A stretch of 64,000 nt of DNA from Escherichia coli. Its GTDB lineage: Bacteria; Pseudomonadota; Gammaproteobacteria; Enterobacterales; Enterobacteriaceae. The position numbers and the translations under genes are program-made. This document shows positions 2-58,163 of the stretch, one piece after another. A model generated the notes under the pieces. That model did not search any database and had not been told where the DNA came from. It worked only from the letters and a program-made list of their open reading frames with translations. Position 1 is the stretch's first letter. Every line of letters begins with the position of its first letter. The stretch lies in the NCBI RefSeq assembly GCF_009931435.1, contig NZ_CP043414.1. One strand, 5' to 3'.

Positions 2-1537
<1,536 letters not shown>

Positions 1538-1546
1538 GGAAGCTCG

Positions 1547-3631
1547 ATGGAAAGCAAACGTCTGGATAATGCCGCGCTGGCGGCGGGGATCAGCCCCAAT
1601 TACATCAATGCCCACGGTAAACCGCAGTCGATTAGCGCCGAAACCAAACGGCGTTTGCTTGACGCGATGCATCAACGTACCGCCACGAAAGTGGCGGTAA
1701 CGCCAGTCCCGAATGTCATGGTCTATACCAGCGGCAAAAAAATGCCGATGGCGGTGGAGGGCAGCGGCGAATATAGCTGGCTGCTGACCACCGAAGAAGG
1801 AACGCAATACAAAGGCCATGTAACGGGGGGCAAAGCGTTCAATTTACCGACGAAGTTGCCGGAAGGTTATCACACGTTGACACTCACCCAGGACGACCAG
1901 CGCGCGCATTGCCGGGTGATTGTCGCCCCGAAACGCTGTTACGAACCGCAGGCGTTGCTGAATAAACAAAAGCTGTGGGGCGCCTGCGTCCAGCTTTATA
2001 CGCTGCGATCGGAAAAAAACTGGGGTATTGGGGATTTTGGCGATCTCAAAGTGATGCTGGTGGATGTGGCAAAACGTGGCGGGGCTTTCATCGGTCTGAA
2101 CCCGATTCATGCGCTCTATCCGGCAAATCCGGAAAGTGCCAGTCCGTATAGCCCGTCTTCTCGTCGCTGGCTAAATGTGGTTTATATCGACGTTAACGCC
2201 GTCGAAGATTTCCATCTTAGCGAAGAGGCTCAGACCTGGTGGCAGTTACCGACCACGCAACAGACGCTGCAACAGGCACGGGATGCCGACTGGGTCGATT
2301 ACTCCACCGTCACTGCGCTGAAAATGACAGCATTGCGGATGGCGTGGAAAGGTTTTGCGCAACGTGATGATGAGCAGATGGCCGCGTTTCGCCAGTTTGT
2401 TGCAGAGCAGGGCGACAGCCTGTTCTGGCAGGCGGCGTTTGACGCGTTACATGCCCAGCAAGTGAAAGAAGACGAAATGCGCTGGGGCTGGCCTGCATGG
2501 CCAAAGATGTATCAGAACGTGGATTCACCAGAAGTGCGTCAGTTCTGCGAAGAACATCGTGATGACGTCGATTTTTATCTCTGGTTGCAGTGGCTGGCTT
2601 ACAGCCAGTTTGCCGCCTGCTGGGAGATAAGCCAGGGCCATGAAATGCCGATTGGCTTGTACCGTGATCTGGCGGTTGGCGTAGCAGAGGGTGGAGCAGA
2701 AACCTGGTGCGACCGGGAGTTGTATTGCCTGAAAGCGTCGGTGGGCGCGCCGCCGGATATCCTCGGCCCGTTGGGGCAGAACTGGGGATTGCCGCCGATG
2801 GATCCGCATATCATCACCGCGCGTGCCTATGAACCGTTTATCGAGCTGTTGCGTGCCAATATGCAAAACTGCGGCGCGTTGCGAATTGACCATGTGATGT
2901 CGATGCTGCGTTTGTGGTGGATACCGTATGGCGAGACGGCAGATCAGGGCGCGTATGTTCACTATCCGGTAGATGATCTGCTCTCGATTCTGGCACTCGA
3001 AAGTAAGCGCCATCGCTGCATGGTGATTGGTGAAGACCTCGGCACTGTACCGGTAGAGATTGTCGGTAAACTGCGCAGCAGCGGTGTGTACTCCTACAAA
3101 GTGCTCTATTTCGAAAGCGACCACGAGAAGACATTCCGCGCGCCGAAAGCGTATCCGGAGCAGTCGATGGCGGTTGCGGCGACACACGACCTGCCTACAC
3201 TGCGTGGCTACTGGGAGAGCGGGGATTTAACACTGGGCAAAACGCTGGGGCTGTACCCGGATGAAGTGGTATTGCGCGGTCTGTATCAGTATCGCGAACT
3301 GGCGAAGCAAGGGTTACTGGATGCACTGCATAAACATGGTTGCCTGCCAAAACGTGCGGGGCATAAGGCATCGTTAATGTCGATGACGCCGATGCTTAAT
3401 CGTGGTTTGCAACGTTATATCGCTGATAGTAACAGTGCTCTGTTAGGGCTTCAGCCAGAAGACTGGCTGGATATGGCCGAACCGGTAAATATTCCCGGAA
3501 CCAGTTACCAGTATAAAAACTGGCGACGTAAGCTTTCTGCAACGCTTGAGTCGATGTTTGCCGATGATGGCGTGAACAAGTTGCTGAAGGATTTGGACAG
3601 ACGGCGCAGAGCGGCTGCGAAGAAGCAGTAG
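1547..3631 (+). CDS. malQ: 4-alpha-glucanotransferase (amylomaltase)
   Basis: 694-aa ORF, recognised as MalQ; position directly after malP. Confidence 0.95.
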   Translation: MESKRLDNAALAAGISPNYINAHGKPQSISAETKRRLLDAMHQRTATKVAVTPVPNVMVYTSGKKMPMAVEGSGEYSWLLTTEEGTQYKGHVTGGKAFNLPTKLPEGYHTLTLTQDDQRAHCRVIVAPKRCYEPQALLNKQKLWGACVQLYTLRSEKNWGIGDFGDLKVMLVDVAKRGGAFIGLNPIHALYPANPESASPYSPSSRRWLNVVYIDVNAVEDFHLSEEAQTWWQLPTTQQTLQQARDADWVDYSTVTALKMTALRMAWKGFAQRDDEQMAAFRQFVAEQGDSLFWQAAFDALHAQQVKEDEMRWGWPAWPKMYQNVDSPEVRQFCEEHRDDVDFYLWLQWLAYSQFAACWEISQGHEMPIGLYRDLAVGVAEGGAETWCDRELYCLKASVGAPPDILGPLGQNWGLPPMDPHIITARAYEPFIELLRANMQNCGALRIDHVMSMLRLWWIPYGETADQGAYVHYPVDDLLSILALESKRHRCMVIGEDLGTVPVEIVGKLRSSGVYSYKVLYFESDHEKTFRAPKAYPEQSMAVAATHDLPTLRGYWESGDLTLGKTLGLYPDEVVLRGLYQYRELAKQGLLDALHKHGCLPKRAGHKASLMSMTPMLNRGLQRYIADSNSALLGLQPEDWLDMAEPVNIPGTSYQYKNWRRKLSATLESMFADDGVNKLLKDLDRRRRAAAKKQ

Positions 3632-11492: not shown

Positions 11493-11511
11493 GATAATGA
11501 GAATGGTTTCT
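11493..11511. promoter_or_regulatory. putative Fur box upstream of feoABC
   Basis: gataatgagaatggtttc matches roughly 15 of 19 positions of the GATAATGATAATCATTATC consensus, about 115 bp upstream of the feoA start. Confidence 0.4.
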
Positions 11512-11762
11512 ATCAGCAATACTTAAAATGTGTGCGAATGTTGGTTTAGATAATAATCTGCGTGAATGTTGATGTGGCTCAAGGTTATATCGCAGCGAAA
11601 ATATAATTCGAATGGCGAATTATCAGGGCGGGTTAATGTTTAATTAAGGTTTCAGTTGTTAATGAAGTGATAAATATTGACGAAATATAGTGTGAGTTTG
11701 GTTGTGGAATAAAAATGCCGGAGATATTCTCCGGCATTTTTATGTCAGGCATGGCGTTTATT

Positions 11763-11796
11763 GCCAGATGCGGCGTGAACGCCTGATCTGGCCTAC
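11763..11796. repeat. REP element
   Basis: gccagatgcggcgtgaacgcctgatctggcctac, close to the canonical REP sequence; a near-identical copy lies at 41632. Confidence 0.7.
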
Positions 11797-11835
11797 GATC
11801 TTGTGCAAATTCGAACCGTAGGCCAATCAGGAGGT

Positions 11836-14157
11836 TTAACGTTTTTTGCCCATTGCCGCCGCCAGCGCATCCATCATCGCGCTGTTACCGGCAGGCTGCG
11901 CTTCACGACCGCGTGGTTTGGCTGCCGGGCGGTTGTTTTGCGGACGTTCATTACCGCCGCCGCGACGGGCGTTGGTTTCGCCAGGCTGCTCGTCCAGACG
12001 CATAGTCAGGGCGATACGTTTACGCTGAAGATCCACTTCCAGCACTTTCACCTTCACAATGTCGCCCGCTTTCACCACGGTATGCGGATCTTCCACAAAC
12101 TTGTTCGACAATGAAGAGATGTGAACCAGGCCGTCCTGATGCACGCCAATATCGACAAACGCGCCAAAGTTGGTGACGTTGGTCACCGCACCTTCGAGGA
12201 TCATACCCGGTTGCAGGTCGTTCATTGTCTCGACGCCATCGGCAAACTGAGCGGTTTTAAATTCCGGACGCGGATCGCGACCCGGTTTTTCCAGCTCTTT
12301 GATGATGTCAGTTACTGTCGGCACACCGAATTTCTCATCAGTAAAGTCAGACGCTTTCAGGTTACGCAGTTCGCTGCTGTTACCCATCAGATCTTTCAGT
12401 GCCTGCTGTGTTGCTGCCAGAATGCGTTCCACCACCGGATAGGCTTCCGGGTGAACAGTAGAGGCGTCCAGCGGGTTGTCACCGTGGTTAATGCGCAAGA
12501 AACCTGCGCACTGCTCGAAGGCTTTCGGCCCCACACGGCTCACTTTCAGCAGTTGCTGACGGTTCTGGAACTGACCGTTCTCATCGCGCCAGGCCACGAT
12601 GTTTTGCGCCATCATGCGCGTCAGGCCCGCCACGCGGGTTAACAGCGGAACGGAAGCGGTGTTGAGATCGACGCCAACGGCGTTTACGCAGTCTTCTACT
12701 ACTGCATCCAGTTTGCGGGCCAGTTGCGTCTGGCTGACATCATGCTGATACTGACCTACGCCGATAGATTTCGGATCGATTTTCACCAGCTCCGCCAGCG
12801 GATCCTGCAAACGGCGGGCGATAGACACTGCGCCACGCAGCGAAACATCGAGATCCGGGAACTCCTGCGCCGCCAGTTCGGAAGCCGAGTAAACCGACGC
12901 GCCTGCTTCGCTGACGATCACTTTCTGTGCGGTCACTTTCGGAAACTGCTTCTGAACGTCGAGATAGAAACGCTCGGTTTCGCGGGAAGCCGTACCGTTA
13001 CCGATTGCCACCAGTTCAACGTTATGTTTTTCACACAAGGCAGCAACGGTCATCGCTGCTTTTGCGGCTTGTCCGGTGTGCGGATAAATGGTGTCGGTGG
13101 CCACCAGTTTACCCGTCGCATCGACTACCGCCACTTTTACCCCAGTACGCAGACCCGGATCGAGGCCCATCGTTGCACGCAGTCCGGCAGGAGCCGCCAT
13201 CAGAAGATCGTGCAGGTTACGGGCAAAGACGTTGATTGCTTCATCTTCCGCGCGTTCGCGCACGGTACCCATCAGTTCGGTTTCCAGGTGCATCAGCACC
13301 TTGATGCGCCAGGTCCAGCTCACCACGCCTTTGCGCCAGCTATCCGCCGGGGCATTGTTCAGGCGCAGACCGAGGTGATCCATGATGATTTGCTCGCAAT
13401 AGCTCTCTTTTGGCGGTTCGTCGAACTGCGGATCGGCATTTAGCGAAAGCTGGAGTACGCCTTCGTTACGCCCACGGAACATCGCCAGCGCGCGGTGAGA
13501 AGGCACCGTTGACAGCGGTTCGTGATGATCGAAATAGTCGCGGAATTTCGCCCCTTCCTCTTCTTTACCGTTCACCACCGTAGAAACCAAATGCGCGTTC
13601 TTCCACAGATAATCACGCACTTTCGCCAGCAGCGCGGCATCTTCGGCAAACCGTTCCATCAGGATATAGCGCGCGCCGTCCAGCGCGGCTTTGGTATCTG
13701 CTACGCCTTTATCGGCATCAACATATTGTGCAGCGGCGACTTCTGGCGTGTGCGACGGATCGTTCCACAGCAGGTCGGCCAACGGCTCAAGCCCTGCTTC
13801 AATAGCAATTTGCCCGCGGGTGCGGCGTTTAGGTTTGTAGGGCAGGTAGAGGTCTTCGAGTTCGGTTTTACTTAAGGTGGCGTTGATAGCATTCGCCAGT
13901 TCGTCGGTGAGTTTACCTTGCTCGGAAATGGACTTGAGGATTGCCTGACGTCTCTCTTCCAGCTCGCGCAGATAGCTCAGACGCGTTTCCAGATTACGCA
14001 ACTGCGTGTCATCCAGACCGCCGGTGATTTCCTTACGATAACGTGCGATAAACGGCACGGTATTCCCTTCGTCAAGCAGGCGAACGGCAGCGTCAACCTG
14101 TTCCGGGCGCGCCTGAATTTCACCCGCAATAATGCGGCAGAACGAATCATTCATCAT
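11836..14157 (-). CDS. tex: Tex-like transcription accessory protein (S1 domain)
   Basis: 773-aa ORF recognised as YhgF/Tex; C-terminal S1 RNA-binding region. Confidence 0.93.
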
Positions 14158-14957: not shown

Positions 14958-17026
<2,069 letters not shown>

Positions 17027-17034
17027 ATAAAACA

Positions 17035-17064
17035 GGAGGCGAAGGTGCCTCCCGTTTTATTTTG
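17035..17064 (+). terminator. rho-independent terminator after envZ
   Basis: Stem ggaggc/gcctcc followed by cgTTTTaTTTT. Confidence 0.7.
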
Positions 17065-17189
17065 TGCACTCAGTATCTACTGAATGAATACGGTTTCAGA
17101 CATCGGCACCATACGAAGTAAAGTGTACTGTAAGCTGATTGCAGGCTAGCGTATCCTGATTAGTAAAAGCACACTAAAGGAATAGCTTG

Positions 17190-18473
17190 ATGCAACTTAC
17201 CAACGAAGAACAAGTACAGATTGCTCGTATAAAAGAAAAAATCCCACGCATTGCCGCACTGGATCCTGAATGTAAGTTATTCGGTTCTGAAGGTTGGAAA
17301 TATCAATGGCCGAAGCCTGCCAGCGAGGCGGAAATAGCTTCCTGGGAGAAAAAACATAGCGTCACTTTGCCACGGGAATATCGAATTTTTCTTCGCTATA
17401 TCGCTAATGGCGGTCCGGCACATGCCTACGGTCTTGAATCTTTAGGCGGTACAGATATTTATGGCGATATAACAAAAGAAAGCCCTGTACCGCTTTATAT
17501 GACGCAGCAGGATGTTGATGTGTTGAATGCTGGCCGTACAGAAGATGATGAAGAATATAGTTTTTTTGACGGCGCATTGACCATTCTCACCCTGGGATGT
17601 ACTTATGATATTTGCCTGGTGGTGACGGGGCAGTATCGCGGAAGGTTAATGCTGACTGATGGTGATGAAGATTATCCGTTTGATTTTATATATGATAAAA
17701 ATTTCCTCAACTGGTATGAACGCTGGCTGGACGATTTTATTGCTGGCATGAGTATGAAGGGTTTCGATAGAAGTTTGCCAGGAACGCAAATTCAACTGCG
17801 TGAGTGGTTTTTAACTGAGAAAATCCCGGATTTACGTAGATCCATTTTATTCTCGCTATGCCGTTTTCCACAGATAGAACCCGAAACTTTTGCCCTTTGG
17901 GAACATGTTTGCCGCACAGAGAATGATAAAGAATTGTGTGAAGAGGCATTCATAAGATTACGCCAAAAAAAAGTTTCTTGTGCTGCAGATATTTTTCGAC
18001 TCTATTTTACAATGCCAGATGAATTACGTGATATTGCTATTAAAGATCTCCGTTTTGCCTGTAGAGATAGTGTGGTGAATATTGAGGATTATATTCATTC
18101 ACTGTTAATAATAATGCCTGAACTTGACGATGACACTCTATCCTCAGCTGTCTTTGCTATACGAGAAACAGAGTATAATAAATATGATACTTTTCTGCCG
18201 CTTCTCGAACGTATCACTGATGACCGTCAGCAAACATTATTGTGGGCGATGAGTAAGGTGCCTGATTTCAATGAAAGCCGAGGATTCGTTGAGTTGGTAT
18301 TACCGCTTTTTGCATCATCAAAGATGGAGAATGTAAGGAAGGCTATTTTGTTGCTCATTGAAGTTAAAGATAATCGTATTCCACCATTGGTTGATGAAGC
18401 TGCAACTCGTTTCCCTGAACTGACCATTTTACGAGAAAACTACTATCTCAGGACGTGGGGACATAAGCCATAA
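17190..18473 (+). CDS. SMI1/KNR4 (SUKH-1) domain protein with C-terminal helical-repeat extension; accessory cassette gene 1
   Basis: ATG at 17190 preceded by AGGA; N-terminal roughly 190 aa carries SUKH-1 hallmarks (WEKKHSVTLPREYRIFLRYIANGG ... FLNWYERWLDDFI); C-terminal roughly 230 aa is leucine-rich and helical; region visibly AT-rich. Confidence 0.7.
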   Translation: MQLTNEEQVQIARIKEKIPRIAALDPECKLFGSEGWKYQWPKPASEAEIASWEKKHSVTLPREYRIFLRYIANGGPAHAYGLESLGGTDIYGDITKESPVPLYMTQQDVDVLNAGRTEDDEEYSFFDGALTILTLGCTYDICLVVTGQYRGRLMLTDGDEDYPFDFIYDKNFLNWYERWLDDFIAGMSMKGFDRSLPGTQIQLREWFLTEKIPDLRRSILFSLCRFPQIEPETFALWEHVCRTENDKELCEEAFIRLRQKKVSCAADIFRLYFTMPDELRDIAIKDLRFACRDSVVNIEDYIHSLLIIMPELDDDTLSSAVFAIRETEYNKYDTFLPLLERITDDRQQTLLWAMSKVPDFNESRGFVELVLPLFASSKMENVRKAILLLIEVKDNRIPPLVDEAATRFPELTILRENYYLRTWGHKP

Positions 18474-18510
18474 ATTAATGGTTCAGAAATGATCTAACGC
18501 GGAGAAAAAT

Positions 18511-19041
18511 ATGATCAGGGAACATATTCAGCAAGCGATAAATAATAGGTTAGCATTTGATGGCCCATTCAATGTTGTTCCTGAACCTGCAAGCACTGCG
18601 TTTGATAGCCGGATCCCGACATTGAAAAACGGTGTCTGGCAGAAGGCCAGCCCTATGTTGCAGGCGCGTTTTGCACATTGTGGACGTTGGTTAAGCGCTA
18701 CACATGGAAGCTGGCTAAGTATAAGTGACATGGAAACGCTTTGGCAGGAACACATAGAAGATACGTTTCTTGATGAAATCAAAATGAATGCTGTAGCTTC
18801 AAGTGATAATTGGGATAACCATGCCTTGGGACTATTTCGTTCTCATCGCCTGTCACTTTTTGCCGGTAGTGATTACAGTTATGAGATGGTTTTTCTCCTT
18901 TGGCTAGATAGTACCGTTGAGCCAGAGGTCTGGGTTTATGACTGCAATGGGGAATCACGTTATAAAGATCTTAATGATTACCTGAATGCATATATTAATG
19001 ATGACGTAAGCGCCTGTGAGCGCTCCTGGCGAGTAGAATGA
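18511..19041 (+). CDS. hypothetical protein, possibly immunity-like; accessory cassette gene 2
   Basis: 176-aa ORF, ATG with GGAG RBS 7 bp upstream; 37 bp after gene 1; no TM segment seen; family not recognised. Confidence 0.55.
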   Translation: MIREHIQQAINNRLAFDGPFNVVPEPASTAFDSRIPTLKNGVWQKASPMLQARFAHCGRWLSATHGSWLSISDMETLWQEHIEDTFLDEIKMNAVASSDNWDNHALGLFRSHRLSLFAGSDYSYEMVFLLWLDSTVEPEVWVYDCNGESRYKDLNDYLNAYINDDVSACERSWRVE

Positions 19042-19664
19042 ATAGCCCCCCTTGCCCCTTTGATCCACAAACCGCACATTACCTCGGTACAGTGCAAATC
19101 CACTACACCTCAACCACCTTCAACGCTGCCGTTAAGCATTATACCTGTTACATTAAAAAGCGTTTTAAAGGGGTTAAATGGGGAATTGGTACCGCTGGCT
19201 TATTGGCTATATTGCCCATGATCCCACAATGGTTGAAACCTTCTCATGACTTTAAACTCAACGCAATCAGTACGTTAATTCTTCTATTAATGTTGCCACT
19301 CCTCTTATCAATGTTCCTGTTAATCAGCAGAAGAATTAACGATTTTAAGTCAAAAACAAAGCAAGTTACTTTTACGAAACCCGTGCGTTATGCGTTTTAT
19401 TTCGAGGGGATTGTTTTTTATGAATCTCATCAGCAGGGCATACTTCGCTGGGAAGATTTTTATAGCATTGAGTATGAAGAAGATTATTTGTGGCTTTTTC
19501 TGCATTTACCGAAGAGTTGGCCCAGAGAAGCGACGAAAGCGTTTTGCGATATTTTCATTCCCACCAGCGCGATAAAAGCGCAGCCTGAACTGGATACGTT
19601 TTTTCGTGAAACACGCCACTCGCTGGATTATCTGTTTGTCCCGTTTAATTCTGACAGAAAATAA
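19038..19664 (+). CDS. two-TM membrane protein with C-terminal soluble domain (YcxB/bacterial PH-like by eye); accessory cassette gene 3
   Basis: 208-aa ORF; start overlaps gene 2 stop by 4 bp (ATGA); two hydrophobic helices (WGIGTAGLLAILPMIPQWL; AISTLILLLMLPLLLSMFLLI) then about 100-aa soluble tail. Confidence 0.55.
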   Translation: MNSPPCPFDPQTAHYLGTVQIHYTSTTFNAAVKHYTCYIKKRFKGVKWGIGTAGLLAILPMIPQWLKPSHDFKLNAISTLILLLMLPLLLSMFLLISRRINDFKSKTKQVTFTKPVRYAFYFEGIVFYESHQQGILRWEDFYSIEYEEDYLWLFLHLPKSWPREATKAFCDIFIPTSAIKAQPELDTFFRETRHSLDYLFVPFNSDRK

Positions 19665-19700
19665 AAAATCCCCCGTATCTGGTGAAACGGGGGATTTCGT
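19662..19700 (-). terminator. rho-independent terminator of pck, also closing the cassette
   Basis: Stem tcccccgt/acggggga; on the minus strand it is followed by TTTTTTA; lies 3 bp after the gene 3 stop and 17 bp after the pck stop. Confidence 0.7.
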
Positions 19701-19716
19701 CGCTTAACTTATCGGA

Positions 19717-21339
19717 TTACAGTTTTGGACCAGCCGCTACCAGCGCGGCACCCGCAGGGGTGTCGGTGTATTTATCGAAGTTGTCGATAAACAGTTTCGC
19801 CAGCGTTTCAGCTTTTTCCTGCCACTGTTCCGGAGAAGCGTAGGTGTTACGCGGATCGAGGATCTTAGTGTCTACGCCCGGCAGTTCAGTCGGGATCGCC
19901 AGGTTAAACATCGGCAGAGTGAAGGTTTCTGCGTTATCCAGCGAACCGTTGAGGATAGCGTCGATAATGGCGCGGGTATCTTTAATGGAGATACGTTTGC
20001 CAGTACCGTTCCAGCCAGTGTTAACCAGATATGCCTGCGCACCCGCCGCTTGCATACGTTTCACCAGCACTTCTGCGTACTGAGTTGGGTGCAGCGACAG
20101 GAACGCCGCGCCGAAGCAAGCGGAGAAGGTTGGCGTCGGTTCGGTGATGCCACGTTCAGTACCGGCCAGTTTGGCGGTGAAGCCAGAGAGGAAGTGGTAC
20201 TGAGTTTGATCGGCAGTCAGGCGAGAAACCGGCGGCAGCACACCAAAGGCGTCTGCGGTCAGGAAGATAACTTTAGTTGCGTGGCCCGCTTTGGAAACCG
20301 GTTTAACGATGTTATCGATGTGATAGATCGGATAAGAAACGCGGGTGTTCTCGGTTTTTGAACCATCGTCAAAATCGATAGTGCCATCTTCACGTACGGT
20401 GACGTTTTCCAGCAGCGCATCGCGACGGATAGCGTTGTAGATTTCAGGTTCCGCTTCTTTCGACAGCTTGATGGTTTTCGCGTAGCAGCCGCCTTCGAAG
20501 TTAAACACGCCATCGTCATCCCAGCCGTGCTCGTCATCGCCAATCAGGCGACGTTTCGGGTCGGTGGAAAGGGTGGTTTTACCGGTGCCGGAAAGACCAA
20601 AGAACACCGCAACATCGCCTTTCTCGCCAACGTTGGCGGAGCAGTGCATAGAAGCGATGCCTTTCAGCGGCAGCAGGTAGTTCATCATTGAGAACATCCC
20701 TTTCTTCATTTCGCCGCCGTACCAGGTGCCACCAATCAGCTGCATGCGCTCGGTCAGGTTAAACGCCACGAAGTTTTCGGAGTTCAGACCCTGTTCTTTC
20801 CACTGCGGGTTAGTGCATTTTGCGCCGTTCATAACGATAAAGTCAGGTTTAAAACCAGCCAGCTCTTCATCGCTCGGGCGAATAAACATGTTTTTGACAA
20901 AATGCGCCTGCCAGGCCACTTCGGTGATGAAACGGACGGAAAGACGCGTGTCTGGGTTCGCACCACAGAAAGCGTCGACAACGAACAGACGTTTACCGGA
21001 AAGCTGTTTGGTCACCAGGCCCTTCAGATGCTGCCAGGTTTCCGGAGAGAGAGGTTTGTTGTCGTTCTTACCTTTGCCTTTATCAGCCCACCAGAAGGTA
21101 TCGCGAGTGGTATCGTCACGGACGATATATTTATCTTTTGGTGAGCGACCGGTGAATATACCGGTATCGACGGCAACGGCACCCAGATTAGTTAACACCC
21201 CGCGCTCATAACCTGTCAGGCTCGGATCGAGCTCTTCCTGATACAGCAGGTCGTAGCTTGGGTTGTAAACGATATCATGTACGTCACTGATACCATAAGC
21301 CTCGAGTTCTTGCGGGGTCAAACCATTGTTAACGCGCAT
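19717..21339 (-). CDS. pck: phosphoenolpyruvate carboxykinase (ATP)
   Basis: 540 aa from [12 protein letters not shown]; Walker-type GLSGTGKTT motif; ORF track extends 23 codons further upstream. Confidence 0.95.
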
Positions 21340-21717: not shown

Positions 21718-23442
21718 ATGGATAACGTTGAACTTTCACCCGCAACACGCTGGGGAATGATTGCTACCGGATTACTTCAGGGACTGGTTTGTTACCTGCT
21801 GATCGCCTGGCTTGCCGGAAAAAATCTCAGTTGGATTGTTTATGGCGTGCCTGCGACCGTCGCGTTTTCATCCGTTTTACTCTTCTCCGTGATCTCCTTT
21901 AAACAGAAGCGCCTTTGGGGATGGCTGGCGCTGGTGTTTATTGCCACGCTGGGAATGAGCGGCTGGCTGAAGTGGCAAACTGATGGCATGAACCCCTGGA
22001 TAGCTGAAAAGGCGCTTTGGGATTTTGGTTGCTATCTGCTGCTGATGGCAATGTTGTTGCTACCGTGGATACAACAAAGCCTTCGCATCCGCAATGACAG
22101 TAGCCGCTATCGCTATTTTTACCAGTCAGTATGGCATAACGTACTTATATTACTGGTGATTTTTCTCGCCAATGGCCTGACGTGGCTGGTACTTTTACTG
22201 TGGGGCGAGTTGTTTAAACTTGTTGGCATCACGTTTTTCAAAACGCTCTTTTTTTCAACCGACTGGTTTATTTATCTCACGTTAGGTCTGGTTACCGCAC
22301 TGGCGGTGATCCTCGCGCGTACACAGTCACGTTTAATCGACTCTATTCAAAAGTTGTTCACGTTAATCGCCACGGGGTTGCTGCCGTTAGTATCATTGCT
22401 AACCCTGATGTTTATCATCACCCTGCCGTTTACGGGCCTGAGCGCGATTTCTCGCCACATCTCCGCCGCCGGGTTGCTGTTGACGCTGGCCTTTTTGCAA
22501 TTGATTTTAATGGCTATTGTCCGCGATCCGCAAAAAGCGTCACTTCCCTGGACGGGGCCGTTGCGTTGCCTGATTAAAACCGCTCTGCTGGCTGCTCCGC
22601 TGTATGTGTTCGTCGCCGCCTGGGCGTTATGGCTGCGGGTCGCTCAGTACGGCTGGACTGTCGACCGCTTGCAGGGCGCGCTGGCGGTGCTGGTGTTACT
22701 GGTATGGTCGCTGGGGTATTTTGTCAGTATCGTCTGGCGTAAAGGGCAAACCCCTCTTGTTCTTCAGGGCAAAGTGAACCTTGCGGTTTCGTTATTGGTG
22801 TTGGTAATACTGGTGCTTCTTAATTCGCCGGTGCTGGATAGTATGCGCATTAGTGCGAACAGTCATATGGCACGTTATCAGAGCGGCAAGAACACGCCAG
22901 ATCAGGTAAGTCTCTACATGCTCGAACAGAACGGTCGCTATGGACGTGCGGCGCTTGAGTCGCTGAAAAGCGATGCCGAGTATATGAAAGACCCGAAACG
23001 CGCACGGGATCTGCTGATGACGTTAGATGGAGAGCAACATCTTCAGGAACAGGTATCGGAAAAAGTATTAGCCGAAAATGTGTTAATTGCCCCAGGCTCT
23101 GGCAAACCGGATACGGCATTCTGGTCGGCCTTAATCCAGGATCGCTATAACGTGATGACCTGTATTGAAAAACACGCCTGCGTACTGGTCGAGCAAGATC
23201 TGAATAGTGATGGTCAGGCGGAGCGGATCCTGTTTGCTTTTAATGATGACAGAGTCATTGTCTATGGCTTTGACCCGGCCAGAAAAGAATGGGACGCGCT
23301 TGATATGAGTATACTTCCGAACGAAATAACGAAAGAAAAATTACTCACAGCTGCGAAGGATGGAAAGCTGGGGACGAGGCCGAAAGCGTGGCGCGATCTG
23401 ACGGTAGATGGTGAAACGCTGGAAATAAACTTAAGCAAATGA
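21718..23442 (+). CDS. yhgE: inner membrane protein YhgE
   Basis: 574-aa polytopic membrane protein divergent from pck; recognised as YhgE. Confidence 0.85.
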
Positions 23443-23498
23443 CAATGCTTTTATCGGATACGACGCTTTATCTTACCAACAATAACTTGTGAATTATT

Positions 23499-23530
23499 GC
23501 GTAGGCCTGGTAAGCGCAGCGCATCAGGCC
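23499..23530. repeat. REP-like palindrome
   Basis: gcgtaggcctggtaagcgcagcgcatcaggcc. Confidence 0.55.
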
Positions 23531-49822: not shown

Positions 49823-51196
49823 TTAATGGTTAGAGAACCAGTTCAATTTATCGCGCAGGCCAACGACCCGACCAATAATAATTAATGAGGGGCTGTTCAT
49901 TTGCTGCGCCAGCTCGCCCAGTTGCGTGAGCGTACCGTCAATCACGCGTTGCGTTACCGCCGTTCCGTTTTCGACAATTGCCACCGGCATTTCGCCAGGC
50001 ATACCGTGTTCAATCAGCTTTTGCTGAATAGTCGCGGCCTGATTCAACCCCATATAGAACACCAGCGTCTGTTTTTCTGCCGCCAGGTTTTCCCAGTCCA
50101 GTTCGCCACCGGTTTTTAAGTGTCCGGTAATTAAGCGTACGCTCTGGGCATAATCGCGATGCGTGAGCGGAATGCCCGAATAGGCAGAGCAACCAGACGC
50201 TGCGGTAATACCTGGAACCACCGAGAATGGAATGCCTGCATTGCACAGTGTTTCCAGCTCTTCGCCACCACGGCCAAAAATAAACGGATCGCCGCCTTTC
50301 AGCCGCACCACGCGTTTGCCTTTTTGCGCTTCCCGCAGCAGGATCTGGTTAATCTCTTCCTGCGGTACGCAGTGGTATCCCGCGCGTTTACCGACGAAGA
50401 CACGATCCGCATCGCGCCGTACCAGATTCATAATATCGTCTGAAACCAGACGGTCGTAGACCACCACATCTGCCTGCTGAATTTGTTGCAGACCTTTCAG
50501 CGTCAGCAGACCGGCATCGCCCGGACCTGCGCCAACCAGCACCACTTCACCGCGATGATCGAGCGGTTCATTGATTAACTGTTCGGTCGTTTCGGTAATG
50601 GCTTTCTGATCGTTGTTCGCCAGCGACTGCGCCAGGCGATCATTAACGAACAGTTTTTCCCAGAAACGGCGACGTTCACCCATCGTGGCGAACTGTCGTT
50701 TGACCCGACCGCGTAACTGCCCCGCATATTTTGCTACCTGGCCGAGATGCAGCGGCAGCAGTGATTCAAGTTTTTCGCGCAACAGTCGCGCCAGAACCGG
50801 AGAGGTGCCGCCAGAGGAGACCGCTACCATGAGCGGGGAGCGGTCAATAATCGACGGCATAATAAAGCTGGCGGCTTTCGGCGCATCGACCACGTTACAG
50901 AAGATACGACGAGATTCGGCGGCTTCGCTGACGCGCTGGTTAAGCGCGTCATCATTCGTCGCCGCAATTGCCAGCCAGCAGGTGTCGAGAAGGCTTTCAT
51001 CAAATGGCCCTTCGACGAGGGTTAACATGCCTGCATCTGCCCATGCGGTGAACTGTGGAATAAACGCTAATGCATTCACCGTTAAGCGAGCACCTGCGTC
51101 TAACAGCAACCTTGCTTTGCGTTCCGCGACATCACCACCGCCGACAATCAAACAGTCGCGGTCGCGTAATTGGCAAAATATAGGCAAATGATCCAC
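49823..51196 (-). CDS. cysG: siroheme synthase
   Basis: 457 aa recognised as CysG. Confidence 0.95.
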
Positions 51197-51214
51197 GTAA
51201 AAACCCCTTAATAA

Positions 51215-52021
51215 TTAACCGGCAGCCGTTTCAGTTTGATTAAATTTGTCCGCAACCGGACGATTAGCTTTCGGCGTAGCATACCAATAACCCAATCCCA
51301 TGAATACGGCACCCGATAAAGTATTACCCAGCGTCACCCACAGCAGGTTATGACCAATACCCGCCAGCGTGTAGGCTTCGCTGTGGTTGCCGAACCATGA
51401 GAGCGCGAACAGCGTCATGTTAGCGATGGAGTGCTCGTAACCGGACGCAATAAACGCCAGCAGACACCACCAGATTGCGATAAATTTCGCCGCGCCTTCA
51501 GTACGCAGTGCCATCCAGATTGCCAGACAAACCAGCCAGTTACACAATGCGCCTTTGAAGAACAGTACCATTGCCGGTGCGGTGGTTTTAGCCAGCGCGA
51601 CGGAGTGAACAATACTGGTATCTATTGGTAAAAGGCTACCACCGCCCCAGCTATAAAGCATGGCAACAAAGACGGAACCGACCAGGTTACCCAGCCAGGT
51701 TTGCGGCAGGATTGCCCACATTTGCCCGTGGCTAATGGTGCCCGCTTTCACCCCAAAGGTGAGGAACATGGTGTGTCCGGTGAACAGTTCAGAACCGGCG
51801 ATAATGACCAGCGTTAAAGCGATACCAAAGGTCGCGCCCATCACCAGAGGACGTACGGACGGATCGAGCAAATTACCGAGCGTGAAAATCAGGATGATCC
51901 CCAGCCCCACATACGCGCCCGCCATCGCGGAGCTTACCCAGAAGCCGAGCGGGTTATTTGCCGACAGGCGTGCAATGCGCGCAGCGTTAGCCGCACACTT
52001 ATTAATAGTGTCTGTAAACAT
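51215..52021 (-). CDS. nirC: nitrite transporter NirC (FNT family)
   Basis: 268-aa membrane protein recognised as NirC. Confidence 0.94.
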   Translation of the reverse strand: MFTDTINKCAANAARIARLSANNPLGFWVSSAMAGAYVGLGIILIFTLGNLLDPSVRPLVMGATFGIALTLVIIAGSELFTGHTMFLTFGVKAGTISHGQMWAILPQTWLGNLVGSVFVAMLYSWGGGSLLPIDTSIVHSVALAKTTAPAMVLFFKGALCNWLVCLAIWMALRTEGAAKFIAIWWCLLAFIASGYEHSIANMTLFALSWFGNHSEAYTLAGIGHNLLWVTLGNTLSGAVFMGLGYWYATPKANRPVADKFNQTETAAG

Positions 52022-52147
52022 TTGATTATCCTTTAAAAAATAAAAACAAAAAATAAAACAAAAAGTTTAAAAAATGTCCTGCAATATACTTAAGGTCATT
52101 ACAGGACAATGCAAAAAGGGGAGGCATTGCGCCTCCCGTTAAAACAA

Positions 52148-52474
52148 TTAACCGCGTAGCTGTACCACGCCGTCTTTCACTCGTGCCTCGTAATGCTTGA
52201 CGGAAAACTGTTCATCTTCCATGCATAAACCGTCGCTTAAGCGAAAACGCTGTTTTTTCAGCGGACTGGCGACCCACAGCTCGCCCTGGTGTTCCGCAAT
52301 CAGCCCGCGTGACAGCACGCTGGATTCGAAGAACGGATCGATGTTGCTGATCGCAAACACCTGGTCGCTGTGATACGGGCGGAAAATCGCTACCTGCTCG
52401 TCACCTAACAGCGCGCAGACGCCGGTTTCAGGCAGGATGTCATCAATTTTGCAGATGTCTTTCCACTGGCTCAT
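52148..52474 (-). CDS. nirD: nitrite reductase small subunit
   Basis: 108 aa; start overlaps nirB stop. Confidence 0.94.
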   Translation of the reverse strand: MSQWKDICKIDDILPETGVCALLGDEQVAIFRPYHSDQVFAISNIDPFFESSVLSRGLIAEHQGELWVASPLKKQRFRLSDGLCMEDEQFSVKHYEARVKDGVVQLRG

Positions 52475-55014
52475 GCGTTGTCCTCCACCAGAGTTACCGG
52501 GATACGTTCATACGGCGTTGCCGGACGGTGCTGTTCGCGCTCTGGCACCATCTGCACGTTCGGGTCACGCTTGTCGCTGTTGATGAAGTGTTTGAAGCGA
52601 ATCTGCGCGGACGGTGTATTGACCGTTTCAGTCCACTCACACACTACCGCTTCACGCAGGCGCGCCATCTCTTCTTCCAGATGTGCGTTCAGCCCCAGTT
52701 TGTCGTCAATGATCACCGCTTTCAGGTAATCAATGCCGCCTTCGAGGTTTTCTAACCACGGTGCGGTACGCGTCAGTTTGTCGGCAGTACGGATGTAGAA
52801 CATCATGAAGCGGTCAAGATATTTGATCAGTGTTTCGCGATCGATATCCGCTGCCAGCAGATCCGCATGACGCGGTTTCATGCCGCCGTTACCGCACACA
52901 TACAGGTTCCAGCCTTTTTCAGTGGCGATAATACCCACATCTTTACCTTGCGCTTCTGAACATTCACGGGTACAGCCGGAGACACCGAACTTCATTTTGT
53001 GCGGCGTACGGATGCCTTTGTAGCGGTTTTCCAGTTCCACGCCGAGGCCGACGCTGTCGCCAACGCCGTAGCGGCACCAGGTGCTACCCACGCAGGTTTT
53101 CGCCATACGCAGTGCTTTCGCATAGGCATGACCGGTTTCGAAACCTGCTTCAATCAGCTGACGCCAGATCTCCGGCAGATCGTCTTTCTGTGCGCCAAAC
53201 ATCGCCAGACGCTGGGAGCCGGTGATTTTGGTGTAGAGATTAAATTCACGCGCGATACGACCCACTGCCATCAGCCCTTCTGGGGTGATTTCACCACCTG
53301 GAGAACGCGGGATCACCGAGTAGGTGCCGTCTTTCTGGATGTTCGCGAGGAAGTTGTCGTTAGAATCCTGTAGCGGAGTATGTTCCGGCTTCAGAATGTA
53401 TTCGTTCCAGCAGGAGGCCAGCAGTGAACCGACGGTCGGTTTACAAACCTCACAACCGTAGCCTTTACCGTGTTTCGCCAGCAGTTCTTCGAAGGTTTTA
53501 ATGCCTTCAACGCGGATCAAATGGAACAGTTCCTGACGTGAATAAGCAAAGTGTTCGCACAGGTTATTGTTAACTTCGATACCCTGTTTTGCCAGTTCCG
53601 CGTTCAGTACCTGAGTGACCAGCGGGATACAGCCACCGCAGCCAGTACCCGCTTTGGTTTCGGCTTTCAGCGCCGCAACGGTGTGGCAGCCTTTGTTGAT
53701 GGCAGCAATCAGATCGCCTTTGGTGACGTCGAAGCAGGAGCAGATTTGCGCGCTGTCCGGCAGTTTATCAACACCAATAGACGGCTTGCCGCTACCTGAG
53801 TGCGCCGGCAGAATCAGAGAATCCGGGTTTTCCGGCAGCTCGATTGCGTTCAGCACCAGTTGCAGCAGGTTACCGTAGTCGCTGGTATCACCCACCAGTA
53901 CTGCACCGAGCAGGGTTTTGTTGTCTTCGCTGACAATCAGGCGTTTGTAGATCTCTTTACTTTCGTCGAGGTAAACGTAGCTACGTGCGCCAGGCGTGCG
54001 ACCGTGAGCATCACCAATACCGCCTACGTCTACGCCCAGCAATTTCAGCTTGGCGCTAAGGTCAGCACCTTCAAAGGCGTTTTCGCTACCGAGAATATGG
54101 TCAACGGCGACCTGCGCCATTTTGTAGCCAGGTGCTACCAGACCAAATACACGGTTGTTCCAGCTTGCGCATTCACCGATGGCGTAGATATCTGGATCGG
54201 AAGTCTGGCAGGAATCATTAATGACGATACCCCCACGCGGAGCAACTTCCAGACCACACTGGGTTGCCAGCTTATCGCGCGGACGGATACCGGTAGAGAA
54301 GACGATAAAGTCGACTTCCAGTTCGCTGCCGTCGGCAAAACGCATGGTTTTACGCGCTTCAACACCTTCCTGCACAATCTCAAGGGTGTTTTTGCTGGTG
54401 TGAACGCGCACGCCCATACTTTCGATTTTGCGACGCAGCTGCTCGCCGCCCATCTGATCAAGCTGTTCCGCCATCAGCATAGGGGCAAATTCGATAACGT
54501 GGGTTTCAATGCCTAAGTTTTTCAGCGCGCCAGCGGCTTCCAGACCTAACAGGCCGCCACCAACAACGGCACCGCGTTTGCTGCGACGGGCGCAGGATTC
54601 AATGGCGTTGAGGTCTTCAATGGTGCGATAGACAAAGCAGTCCTGAGTATCAGAACCTTTAATTGGCGGGATCCACGGGTAGGAACCGGTCGCCATGATC
54701 AGCTTGTCATAAAAAACGGTGCGCCCGGCGCTGGAGTGAATCACCTTCTCCTGACGGTTGATGGTGATAGCGCGTTCGCCGACCAGAACTTTAATACCGT
54801 GTTTTTCGTAAAAGCCTTCGCGCACCAGCGACAGCTCTTCGGCGGTGTGGTGAGAGAAGTAAGACGAGAGGTGTACGCGGTCATAAGCGATGCGCGGTTC
54901 TTCACAGAAAACGGTAATATCAAAGTTGGCCGCATCAGATTTATCAAGAAGATCTTCGATAAAGCGATGGCCGACCATACCGTTACCGATAATTGCGAGT
55001 CTGACTTTGCTCAT
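52471..55014 (-). CDS. nirB: NADH-dependent nitrite reductase large subunit
   Basis: 847 aa; N-terminal FAD/NAD fold (IIGNGMVG) and siroheme/Fe-S region. Confidence 0.96.
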   Translation of the reverse strand: MSKVRLAIIGNGMVGHRFIEDLLDKSDAANFDITVFCEEPRIAYDRVHLSSYFSHHTAEELSLVREGFYEKHGIKVLVGERAITINRQEKVIHSSAGRTVFYDKLIMATGSYPWIPPIKGSDTQDCFVYRTIEDLNAIESCARRSKRGAVVGGGLLGLEAAGALKNLGIETHVIEFAPMLMAEQLDQMGGEQLRRKIESMGVRVHTSKNTLEIVQEGVEARKTMRFADGSELEVDFIVFSTGIRPRDKLATQCGLEVAPRGGIVINDSCQTSDPDIYAIGECASWNNRVFGLVAPGYKMAQVAVDHILGSENAFEGADLSAKLKLLGVDVGGIGDAHGRTPGARSYVYLDESKEIYKRLIVSEDNKTLLGAVLVGDTSDYGNLLQLVLNAIELPENPDSLILPAHSGSGKPSIGVDKLPDSAQICSCFDVTKGDLIAAINKGCHTVAALKAETKAGTGCGGCIPLVTQVLNAELAKQGIEVNNNLCEHFAYSRQELFHLIRVEGIKTFEELLAKHGKGYGCEVCKPTVGSLLASCWNEYILKPEHTPLQDSNDNFLANIQKDGTYSVIPRSPGGEITPEGLMAVGRIAREFNLYTKITGSQRLAMFGAQKDDLPEIWRQLIEAGFETGHAYAKALRMAKTCVGSTWCRYGVGDSVGLGVELENRYKGIRTPHKMKFGVSGCTRECSEAQGKDVGIIATEKGWNLYVCGNGGMKPRHADLLAADIDRETLIKYLDRFMMFYIRTADKLTRTAPWLENLEGGIDYLKAVIIDDKLGLNAHLEEEMARLREAVVCEWTETVNTPSAQIRFKHFINSDKRDPNVQMVPEREQHRPATPYERIPVTLVEDNA

Positions 55015-55072
55015 TTTTGCCTCGATTTCTTTTCTATTACCGCCTACCTTAACGATTCAGCAACCCCGCTTA

Positions 55073-55086
55073 TTGATGTAAATCAA
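55073..55086. promoter_or_regulatory. FNR binding site of the nir promoter
   Basis: TTGATgtaaATCAA, perfect FNR consensus half-sites, about 60 bp upstream of the nirB start codon. Confidence 0.8.
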
Positions 55087-55275
55087 ATTCACCTTTATAT
55101 ACTCCTTAAGAGGTATATTGCTGATTTGTATAAATTTTCTTAAGTCACGGAATTGTCTGACATTTCATTCGTGTGCAAAAAATAGACAAAATGAAAGGGT
55201 TTATAGAAATAGACGTACGTAGCGGGGTAAGTGAGGAAAAGGCCGGACGACGATAGCGCCGCCCGGCATGAGCAA

Positions 55276-56457
55276 TTAATGAGAGGTCAGGGTGTTATGC
55301 TGACGGTGACGGCTGACGAAACCTAACAGGAAGCACATTACAAAGACGACAGCGTACAGACCGTTTGCCGTCAGCAGCGCCGCCTTTGGACCGCTATGTT
55401 CAACAATCGGGCCGGTAACGACAAAGGTCAGCATGGTACCGATGGTCCCGCAAGTCAGGACAAAGTTAACCAGTTTTGGTGACGGTACTTTGGTTTGCTG
55501 TGAACCCAGGGTGATGATGGTGGTATAGATCGCGCTGGAGAAGAAGCCCAGGGCGAGAATTGACCACGCCATATGTGCCGGTGTTCCGGTGTTAAAGACG
55601 TACATCAGAATCGCAGCCAGACCGGCCAGTACGGTCAGAATACGTTGCAAATCAAAGAAGCGAAGAATAAAGCTGAACGCCCACATGCCGACCATATAGG
55701 ACATCCAGAAGTTACTCACCAGCGTACCTGCGTCGTTCAGGCTCATGCCCAGGCCTTTGGCATACTCTGGTACCCAGGAGATAAAACCTAACTGACCGAG
55801 GATGTAGCACAGCGCTGCAATTGAGAGAAACAGTACGCCGATGCCCCATTTTTCTTTCGCTACTGGAGCATCCGTTTTTGGCGCATGTTTGCCCAGTGCC
55901 GGAAACTCACAGCCGAAGGTCAGAATAAAAATAGCGACGTAAACCAGCCCGATGCAGGCATAAACCCAGTACCACTCAATGCTGCGCGCCAGTAGAAACG
56001 CGGCGATCATTGGGAAAATCATCCCAGCCATACTGAAGAAGGAGTCGGTAAATAACAGGCGGGAACCGCGCTGACGCCCTTCATACATTTGTGTTATCAG
56101 GAATGTACCAATCGACATAGTAATGCCGCTGACCACCCCGAGAATGAACATCGCCGCCGAGAACAGCGCCAGGCTGTGGCTAAACATCAAACCAGCAACC
56201 GCTAGCACCATCAGGAGAAAGCCAAAACGTAACTGCGTTTTTAACGGGACGATTTCCATCAGCCAGGCATTGAGGAAGATAGAGATTAAAATGCCAGCAT
56301 TGAGGAAGGTGAAGGTGTTACTCATACTGGAAACAGGCAGATTGAAATAATCGGCGATATTTCCCATCACCATCCCGGTGACAATAACCAACGCACCCGT
56401 CAGTGCGTAGGAGAGAAAGCTAATCCATGTGAGCTTGATGCGATTGCTGTTAGTCAT
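55276..56457 (-). CDS. tsgA: MFS transporter TsgA
   Basis: 393-aa membrane protein recognised as TsgA. Confidence 0.9.
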
Positions 56458-56717
56458 GATTGGCCTGCGTTCAAAAATAAAATGGCATAGCGGGATATGC
56501 CGCGAGCGGGCGATTTTAGGTGATTTTGTGATCTGTTTAAATGTTTTATTGCAATCGGTTGCTAAATTGCATTTTAAGGGTGATTTTGATCACGGAATAA
56601 AAAGTGATCGTCAGGTTACATATATTTCAGATACGTAAAATTAGGTAAAGGGATGGCCTTGTTCTTGAAGGCTATTTAGAATCTCTTCACTTGCTTTTTT
56701 TCTGCTCTGTTTGTTAA

Positions 56718-57299
<582 letters not shown>

Positions 57300-57306
57300 T
57301 GATTTC

Positions 57307-57336
57307 TCGCGCGGGCAATCTTGCCCGCGCTTCTGC
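57307..57336 (+). terminator. putative terminator after ppiA
   Basis: cgcgcgggcaa tc ttgcccgcgc hairpin followed by a T-rich tract. Confidence 0.55.
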
Positions 57337-57403
57337 TCTCCCGGCGTAACCCGGATTTGCCGCTTATACTTGTGGCAAATGGACACGTTCAGGGAGGCAT
57401 CAA

Positions 57404-57571
57404 GTGAAGAAACTCACCGATAAGCAAAAGTCCCGTCTCTGGGAGCTTCAGCGTAATCGTAATTTCCAGGCCAGTCGCCGTCTTGAAGGCGTCGAGATGC
57501 CATTAGTCACTCTTACTGCCGCAGAGGCTTTAGTGCGCCTTGAAGAGCTGAGGAGGCACTATGAGCGATAA
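57404..57571 (+). CDS. yhfG: small protein YhfG (Fic partner, antitoxin-like)
   Basis: 55-aa ORF with GTG start after AGGGAGG RBS ([22 protein letters not shown]...); stop overlaps fic start. Confidence 0.8.
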
Positions 57572-58163
57572 ATTCGGCGAAGGGCGCGATCCGTATCTTT
57601 ATCCTGGCCTTGATATCATGCGTAACCGGCTGAACATCCGCCAGCAACAGCGGCTGGAACAGGCCGCTTACGAAATGACGGCGCTGCGTGCTGCGACCAT
57701 TGAGCTTGGTCCGCTGGTGCGCGGTTTACCGCATTTGCGCACTATCCATCGCCAGCTGTATCAGGATATTTTCGACTGGGCGGGGCAACTGCGTGAAGTT
57801 GATATTTATCAGGGCGATACGCCTTTCTGCCACTTTGCTTATATCGAAAAAGAGGGCAATGCCCTGATGCAGGATCTGGAGGAAGAAGGGTATCTGGTTG
57901 GCCTGGAGAAAACGAAGTTCGTCGAGCGGCTGGCACACTACTATTGTGAAATCAACGTCCTGCATCCCTTCCGGGCGGGAAGTGGTCTGGCACAGCGGAT
58001 CTTCTTCGAGCAACTGGCGATTCATGCTGGTTATCAACTGAGCTGGCAGGGTATCGAAAAAGAGGCCTGGAATCAGGCAAATCAGAGTGGGGCAATGGGT
58101 GATCTCACTGCGCTGCAGACGATATTTAGCAAAGTGGTAAGCGAAGCCGGGGAATCTGAGTAA
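57561..58163 (+). CDS. fic: Fic-domain AMP transferase
   Basis: 200 aa; Fic motif [12 protein letters not shown]. Confidence 0.94.

Follow-up and report, generated by a model that had tools for sequence, protein, structure and literature searches.

Orphan immunity genes are well established, and the loci closest to the one described here fall into a few known types, namely polyimmunity loci and polyimmunity proteins (PMC3113570, PMC3482391), recombinase-headed orphan arrays (rAID/AID), and the Rhs effector-immunity pairs of type VI secretion systems (T6SS). SUKH and HEAT repeats are both listed among the immunity classes, SUKH fusions have been termed "polyimmunity proteins" (PMC3482391), and experiments have shown that orphan SUKH immunity proteins retain the ability to protect at only 37 to 39% identity to their cognate counterpart (bioRxiv 10.1101/2025.05.03.651265). 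Here, we analyzed 64,000 nucleotides of the Escherichia coli contig NZ_CP043414.1 (referred to as the window), in which an insert with three genes (g1, g2, and g3) separates the core genes envZ and pckA. We think that this insert is probably a small operon in the chromosome that is made up of orphan immunity genes, that is, a polyimmunity locus without a toxin gene or a recombinase. Nothing in our data overturns the current understanding of such genes; what is new is modest and consists of a SUKH-fold immunity family that has lacked annotation and pairs with an uncharacterized Rhs toxin and of a conserved site between core genes that is anchored by a YcxB protein.

In a K-12-type strain, the spacer between envZ and pckA measures 75 bp, in agreement with the first-pass annotation of this DNA, which had described the two genes as adjacent in K-12 and put the extra DNA of the window at about 2.6 kb. 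The blastn alignment with that strain breaks off at position 17058 and picks up again at 19716, giving an insert of 2,657 bp (17059..19715) in place of ca. 43 bp of K-12 spacer. The end of envZ is at 17026 and that of the convergent pckA, on the minus strand, at 19717. The insert contains three open reading frames (ORFs) on the plus strand, all co-oriented and closely packed: g1 (17190..18473; 427 amino acids [aa]), annotated in RefSeq as an SMI1/KNR4 family protein; g2 (18511..19041; 176 aa), encoding a SUKH-fold protein that we interpret as an orphan immunity homolog; and g3 (19038..19664; 208 aa), encoding a predicted inner membrane protein of the YcxB family. The spacing reported before, 37 bp between g1 and g2 and a 4-bp overlap (ATGA) of the g3 start with the g2 stop, was confirmed from the ORFs and the sequence, and the three genes are probably cotranscribed. 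The AT richness also held up, as the GC content of the insert was 0.417 versus 0.518 for the whole window, and that at third codon positions (GC3) ranged from 0.35 to 0.44 in g1 to g3 compared to 0.57 to 0.67 in ompR, envZ, pckA, and yhgE. Since each of the three has conserved homologs and a ratio of nonsynonymous to synonymous substitution rates (dN/dS) below 1, they are real genes rather than chance ORFs.

The clearest link to a toxin came from g2. Sequence searches against Pfam, NCBIfam, PADLOC, PHROGs, and PDB left it without a match, but a confident structure model shows a SUKH fold, which is enough to place it in that superfamily. Homologs were detected in 20 of 100,044 species-representative genomes, scattered across Gamma-, Beta-, and Alphaproteobacteria, Bacteroidota, and Deferribacterota. 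In Pectobacterium parmentieri, P. zantedeschiae, and Azovibrio restrictus, they lie 10 to 20 bp 3' of full-length Rhs genes, and those of Burkholderia turbans and Serratia rubidaea follow, at the same distance, an Rhs gene truncated where the contig ends and an orphan Rhs tip, respectively. The five Rhs tips form one family, with mutual identities of 60 to 91%, ca. 125 residues each after the DPxGL motif, and a common motif, GHTPDVGWGG. This toxin tip had no match in Pfam, NCBIfam, or PDB and was not found on plasmids; a presumed likeness of GHTPD to the GH-E nucleases had no support from any search. The same pairing exists in E. coli itself. In strain 05-3629 (L042:2855-7909), the gene order is VgrG, a DcrB-like gene, an Rhs gene with the GHTPDVGWGG tip, and a 176-aa gene whose product is 54% identical to g2, and this module was present in 70 of the 5,426 complete E. 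coli genomes, with strains M1 and M8 as further examples of carriers of this Rhs. The Rhs protein of 05-3629 is WP_032141712, whose last ca. 125 residues are encoded at about L042:6990-7366, and its cognate immunity protein is WP_023155453. In all the loci examined (L042, L014, L028, L037, L038, and L024), the tip was followed by a g2-type gene. Members of the g2 family are thus located directly 3' of one recurring family of toxin tips in five taxa as well as in E. coli, the arrangement expected of cognate immunity genes. Other homologs were found in Bacteroidales arrays headed by a tyrosine recombinase, with SMI1_KNR4, SUKH_5/6, Ank, LRR, Imm11, and Imm68 among their neighbors.

Neither beside g2 nor elsewhere in the 64 kb of the window did we find an Rhs gene, a VgrG gene, or a toxin tip, and since there is no toxin next to it or within this distance, the copy in the window is an orphan and not a cognate one. 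Along similar lines, the 18 genomes that carry the insert (see below) showed no overlap with the 60 listed carriers (of 70) of the toxin module. Taken together, these gene neighborhoods identify g2 as an orphan member of a genuine Rhs-toxin immunity family. The earlier description of the three products, one a SUKH fusion, one small and of unknown type, and one with two transmembrane (TM) helices, was correct; the accompanying view that the set matches no nameable system does not stand, given that g1 and g2 are both of the SUKH superfamily, that g2 falls in an Rhs-toxin immunity family, and that the layout fits a polyimmunity locus.

For g1, membership in the SUKH superfamily follows from a significant sequence profile match. 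Its SUKH-1 domain (aa 43 to 169; 17316..17696, plus strand) matched Pfam SMI1_KNR4 (E value of 2.7e-6, aa 43 to 152) and SUKH_6 (3.4e-5). Toward the C terminus, the family profile indicates a region of HEAT-like repeats of the alphaRep/PBS-HEAT type (approximately 18066..18461, plus strand), with profile positions of ca. 300 to 430 matching alphaRep and HEAT-repeat PDB chains at E values down to 4e-18. Pfam HEAT_2 is recorded in four relatives (P0011 and P0017-P0019), and g1 of the window itself had no HEAT match in Pfam. With SUKH-1 and HEAT-like parts, both of them immunity-type domains, its predicted architecture would be that of a polyimmunity protein. The family is small, with 24 clusters among 5.8 billion proteins. 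A SUKH gene that stands alone on the Serratia plasmid pAM01, surrounded by CdiA fragments, Imm31 genes, and pieces of deaminase toxins, encodes a product with 54% identity to the SUKH domain of g1, and more distant homologs of g1 were located in long arrays of small co-oriented genes, of which that of Capnocytophaga includes Imm-NTF2. In Saccharibacillus (Bacillota; L043:6026-6961) as well as in Capnocytophaga (Bacteroidota; L044:5492-6511), a gene just upstream of that for the g1 homolog encodes a DUF7638/DUF7639 protein, a pairing that may be conserved. Some E. coli strains have a g1 paralog of 424 aa with SUKH and HEAT-like parts (40% identity), which is solitary and located between the yoaA helicase gene and yoaB (L009-L011:6001-7275).

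The third gene is of a different kind. In the AlphaFold2 model, g3 runs from a strand and a helix through two TM helices into a PH-like sandwich; the TM helical hairpin (aa 44 to 108; 19167..19361, plus strand) comprises helices at aa 44 to 58, 61 to 66, and 76 to 108, and the PH-like beta-sandwich domain, assigned by fold, covers aa 116 to 192 (19383..19613, plus strand). Foldseek searches returned almost exclusively YcxB-like AlphaFold models, many with a probability of 1.0, and g3 shares 98% identity with an E. coli entry that bears the name "YcxB family protein." By its N-terminal two-TM hairpin and C-terminal PH-like domain, g3 belongs to the YcxB family (PF14317), even if the match to the Pfam model by sequence was not significant (E value of 0.57). 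Its own sequence subfamily had 15 representatives among 1.84 billion proteins and, in the contexts examined, was confined to the envZ-pckA site of Enterobacteriaceae; fusions of it with a 142-aa helical domain occur in both orders.

Comparison across genera showed that this site is a mosaic, with six arrangements found. The window and Escherichia albertii have g1, g2, and g3, and in the E. albertii type strain (L022), the cassette and a RelE/ParE-NadS pair (L022:8626-9298) are side by side. The type represented by Escherichia sp. MOD1-EC7003 (L020 and L023) has a 142-aa helical protein, a g2 homolog (66%), and g3 (65%), while Salmonella enterica (L017) has a 152-aa helical protein, CdiI_5, a 91-aa ORF, a CdiI_5 fragment, and g3. 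E. coli A30 and Escherichia sp. E4742 have a single 346-aa ORF in which the helical domain is fused to g3, and in Enterobacteriaceae bacterium G50 (L019), a g2 remnant with an internal deletion precedes g3. Whatever the upstream genes, g3 was the last gene before pckA in every context examined (Escherichia, Salmonella, and G50). An NCBIfam scan of the Rhs tip, CdiI_5, the 91-aa ORF, and the A30 protein found nothing, and a literature search for a hot spot at envZ-pckA yielded nothing relevant. In many other E. coli strains, the spacer holds only the RelE/ParE-NadS toxin-antitoxin pair (e.g., L004:2059-2731), and in one strain, an IS200/IS605 transposase is found there.

The Salmonella variant gave some indication of how genes enter the site. 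Its insert (L017:4806-6033) consists of two tandem truncated modules, each made of a toxin-tip fragment plus cdiI_5, and interrupts an A30-like ORF exactly between the H and Y codons of "...FDPQTAH/YLGTVQ...". An in-frame fusion joins the second cdiI_5 copy to g3, and the annotated start of g3 in this genome (MPFGLKPVMTQ) therefore consists of cdiI_5 sequence. Both ends of the insert are cut within genes, a sign of illegitimate (or homologous) recombination; site-specific capture of cassettes at the "FDPQTAH" linker, which we also considered, was rejected on the same grounds and persists only in the unlikely interpretation given below. In several S. enterica serovars, the order of the fusion is reversed, with a 365-aa protein (P0077 and P0089-P0100) in which the g3-like YcxB part comes first and the 142-aa helical domain second, and the occurrence of both orders suggests that the two parts function jointly. 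The helical and YcxB parts are fused (A30 and E4742), reverse fused (Salmonella serovars), or split by inserted immunity genes elsewhere. A bolder and, in our opinion, unlikely interpretation is that the conserved core of the site is a module of a helical (faintly HEAT-like) domain and a YcxB membrane protein, which would act as an unrecognized membrane-anchored protective or toxin-sensing device and whose interdomain linker would serve as a landing pad that collects immunity genes without a dedicated recombinase. The 142-aa domain of the A30 type had only a faint HEAT_2 match (E value of 0.29) and no PDB match, and a profile-profile comparison of this N-terminal domain with the g1 family detected no similarity (probability of 2%); homology of the two helical domains is accordingly not claimed.

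We then compared the evolutionary rates of the cassette with those of the neighboring core gene. The dN/dS values were 0.14 to 0.27 for g1, 0.39 for g2, and 0.27 to 0.50 for g3, i.e., 10 to 50 times those of envZ (0.007 to 0.05) and yet below 1. The three genes are constrained but fast evolving, which is consistent with genes involved in conflict. The synonymous divergence between the window and Salmonella was 0.22 for g3 versus 0.79 for envZ, and that between the window and G50 was 0.41 versus 1.01. Values so far below those of envZ indicate that the locus has been exchanged between genera after their split, probably by homologous recombination through the conserved flanks. A purely vertical descent of the cassette, which the raw identities had suggested by their resemblance to those of core genes, was overturned by this comparison. 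The identity of the 3' end of pckA to Salmonella was uninformative about cotransfer of flanking DNA because it is high in K-12 as well.

Regarding distribution, the cassette was present in 18 of the 5,426 complete E. coli genomes, that of strain 2013C-4282 among them, with identities of 99.2 to 99.5%, every time between envZ and pckA and with all three ORFs annotated as intact (18 of 18). The remaining 5,408, K-12 included, lacked it, confirming the accessory status proposed in the first-pass annotation. The carriers were also the 18 top matches to the 8 kb on either flank and to a stretch 30 to 40 kb away, where their identity to the window was 97.8 to 99.0%, versus no more than 97.1% for all the other genomes. 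Given that the carriers coincide with the closest genomes to the window, the cassette is fixed in one divergent lineage and was not inserted sporadically. At positions 1575-35375 and 50000-58000, the same 18 "E. coli" genomes were the sole close relatives (98 to 99%), and the window was ca. 96 to 97% identical to K-12 over 30 kb. These identities suggest a distinct deep lineage, possibly one of the cryptic Escherichia clades. In E. albertii, the same three genes occupy the same site with 89.5% identity over 2.7 kb and a frameshift in g1. The horizontal acquisition inferred earlier from composition can thus be retained in part, since exchange at the level of the locus is supported by the divergence of g3 relative to Salmonella, but a sporadic recent insertion is not, with the 18 carriers forming one lineage and E. 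albertii sharing the site. Plasmid searches with g3 and with the whole cassette gave no match, those with g2 gave one partial Sphingomonas match, and those with g1 gave only SUKH/HEAT relatives.

Several properties of the locus support its classification among polyimmunity loci, for which the layout argues directly: the genes point the same way, with 37 bp between the first two and 4 bp of overlap between the last two, include no toxin, and vary in content by lineage, traits by which polyimmunity loci are defined (PMC3482391). Two immunity-type genes are in tandem with short gaps, the gene content differs between related strains and species, and CdiI_5 immunity modules have been taken up at this site in Salmonella. 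If this is correct, the operon would supply cytoplasmic binders that neutralize toxin domains injected by competitors. The product of g2 would bind and neutralize the GHTPDVGWGG Rhs tip delivered through the T6SS of a neighboring cell, and that of g1 would neutralize one or more other polymorphic toxins. As for g3, a long-standing resident of the site, it may be a protective factor at the membrane level that works with the helical-domain protein encoded upstream.

Against this classification, several observations have to be considered. Neutralization by g1 and g2 is a prediction, and with an identity of only 54% between g2 and the cognate immunity protein of E. coli, cross-protection is not assured. 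The locus is short of an "extended" polyimmunity locus (at least four genes), with three genes, two of them of the immunity type. The close homologs of g1 in Klebsiella aerogenes and at another E. coli site are lone genes flanked by core genes and have no toxin context, and g1 itself is frameshifted or broken in three E. albertii genomes. No member of the YcxB family was detected when its profile was run against all ORFs of the other immunity arrays analyzed here, leaving g3 without an immunity link outside this locus, and a literature search on YcxB function found nothing relevant. Finally, a consensus promoter scan recognized no site within the leader of the operon (17065..17189).

Some of these same observations would be expected if an earlier toxin-immunity locus, or some other accessory locus, had been decaying here, with ORFs that remain open without a present benefit. 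The broken g1 of E. albertii, the g2 of G50 reduced to an internally deleted remnant, the elevated dN/dS values, and the lack of a recognizable promoter all fit with decay, and DNA this rich in AT might be silenced by H-NS. On the other hand, the three ORFs are intact in every carrier, each gene has a dN/dS value clearly under 1, and g3 has been kept in every variant across genera in spite of the turnover of its upstream partners. We consider decay possible for g1 and unlikely as an explanation of the whole locus.

Compact AT-rich operons of three genes at variable sites also bring to mind anti-phage or abortive infection systems, the more so as other strains have the RelE/ParE-NadS pair at this position. 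The SUKH/HEAT proteins would then sense infection, with the two-TM protein g3 as the membrane-disrupting effector, and two-TM membrane effectors are common in defense systems. The only match in this direction was a weak one of g3 to the Pycsar effector PycTM (E value of 0.0099, aa 54 to 151), which overlaps the TM hairpin, and at its C terminus, g3 has a PH-like (YcxB) domain, not one that binds cyclic nucleotides. There was no PADLOC match for g1 and g2 (PADLOC-DB 2.0) and no PHROG match for any of the three, the scans of g1, g2, and g3 with PADLOC, NCBIfam, and PHROGs returning nothing usable. Moreover, the genes travel separately, with g1 homologs alone, g2 with Rhs genes or in arrays, and g3 alone or with other partners. 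The PADLOC screen proposed in the first-pass annotation hence lent no support to an anti-phage system, which we regard as quite improbable. An envelope or housekeeping role tied to EnvZ/OmpR seems to us very improbable. The operon does lie directly downstream of envZ and on the same strand, g3 is a membrane protein, and Pfam labels the SUKH families "SMI1-KNR4 cell-wall," the Smi1/Knr4 proteins being cell wall regulators in yeast. But a terminator hairpin separates envZ from g1, the cassette is missing from 99.7% of the complete E. coli genomes (K-12 among them), the genes evolve fast, and g1 and g2 have homologs elsewhere, at unrelated loci and in unrelated phyla.

Concerning the edges of the orphan immunity operon that we favor, the left one is marked by the envZ terminator (17025..17064, plus strand), an inverted repeat with 16-nucleotide arms that are 94% complementary (hairpin 17025..17062) followed by a T-run. 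This hairpin is common to K-12 and every other variant of the locus, and homology to all of them stops at ca. 17058 to 17062. In the operon leader that follows on the plus strand, an AAGGA ribosome-binding site precedes the g1 ATG by 8 nucleotides; ribosome-binding sites are recognizable for both g1 and g2. Translation of g1 could start at the ATG at 17190, the RefSeq choice (427 aa), or at a TTG at 17187 (428 aa). At the right end, a hairpin with 14-nucleotide arms, 93% complementary (19666..19697, minus strand), arrived with the insert. Judging by its sequence and its minus-strand T-run, it is predicted to serve as the pckA terminator and also to close the g1-g3 operon. It has a homologous counterpart in the A30 variant, while the toxin-antitoxin variant has a different hairpin of its own. 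As had been stated before, neither the insert boundaries nor the annotated neighbors revealed an integrase, a transposase, a tRNA, or flanking repeats: there was no tRNA and no meaningful repeat at the boundaries, no integrase, transposase, or recombinase among the annotated genes in the 15.8 kb around the locus, and no Rfam match within the insert. The marks of a classical genomic island were all absent, whether an integrase or a transposase, an att site or a tRNA, or direct repeats at the flanks.

Elsewhere in the window, other differences from related genomes were noticed. In the yhgE-hslO interval, ca. 97 bp (23421-23518) did not align to the K-12-type strain and contain a palindrome resembling repetitive extragenic palindromic (REP) elements, GCCTGGTAAGCGCAGCGCATCAGGC. 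The gene yhgE, encoding a DUF4153 membrane protein, is present in the window (21718-23442) and in K-12, and E. albertii lacks it between pckA and hslO (L012:8845-9237). Within yhgF/tex, the identity of positions 11500-12000 falls to ca. 90 to 93% relative to both the close relative RMDEC465 and K-12, with the adjacent 500-bp bins at 98 to 99%, and could correspond to a short recombination tract.

If the proposed function is true, one divergent Escherichia lineage and E. albertii come prearmed against an Rhs toxin that ca. 1.3% of sequenced E. coli can fire. The g2 family, so far annotated as hypothetical and without a Pfam model, gains a putative role and a pairing with a defined, uncharacterized toxin family. 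The envZ-pckA spacer, fixed between core genes, gathers small conflict modules across genera, including immunity genes, CdiI_5 modules, and the RelE/ParE pair, and the YcxB family, widespread and without a known function, becomes a candidate for study in this setting.

Compared to the described systems, the locus shares with polyimmunity loci and proteins (PMC3113570, PMC3482391) the tandem, co-oriented, and closely spaced immunity-type genes without a toxin, the dominance of SUKH, the fusion (in g1) of SUKH to a second, HEAT-like domain of immunity type, and a content that differs between related lineages. It departs from the extended ones by having two clear immunity-type genes instead of at least four and no adjacent XerC/D-type recombinase, and from polyimmunity loci in general by the presence of g3, since YcxB is absent from the list of immunity families, and by its fixed location between two core genes, common across genera. 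As in the recombinase-headed orphan arrays (rAID/AID), the immunity genes have diverged from T6SS-linked cognate copies, and g2 homologs do sit in such arrays in Bacteroides and Parabacteroides (L033 and L035). Unlike them, the locus is found in Enterobacteriaceae, has no tyrosine recombinase, shows no trace of mobility in the form of an integrase, a tRNA, or a boundary repeat, contains three genes and not a long array, and is fixed in one lineage. With the T6SS Rhs effector-immunity pairs of E. coli 05-3629 (L042) and P. parmentieri (L014), it has in common a full-length homolog of the immunity gene (54 to 56%), but here the gene stands apart from any Rhs, VgrG, or toxin tip. Lastly, g3 has the topology and fold of the YcxB family (Pfam PF14317), with two TM helices plus a PH-like domain, and differs from other YcxB proteins in that its subfamily is fused in some genomes, in either order, to a 142-aa helical domain.

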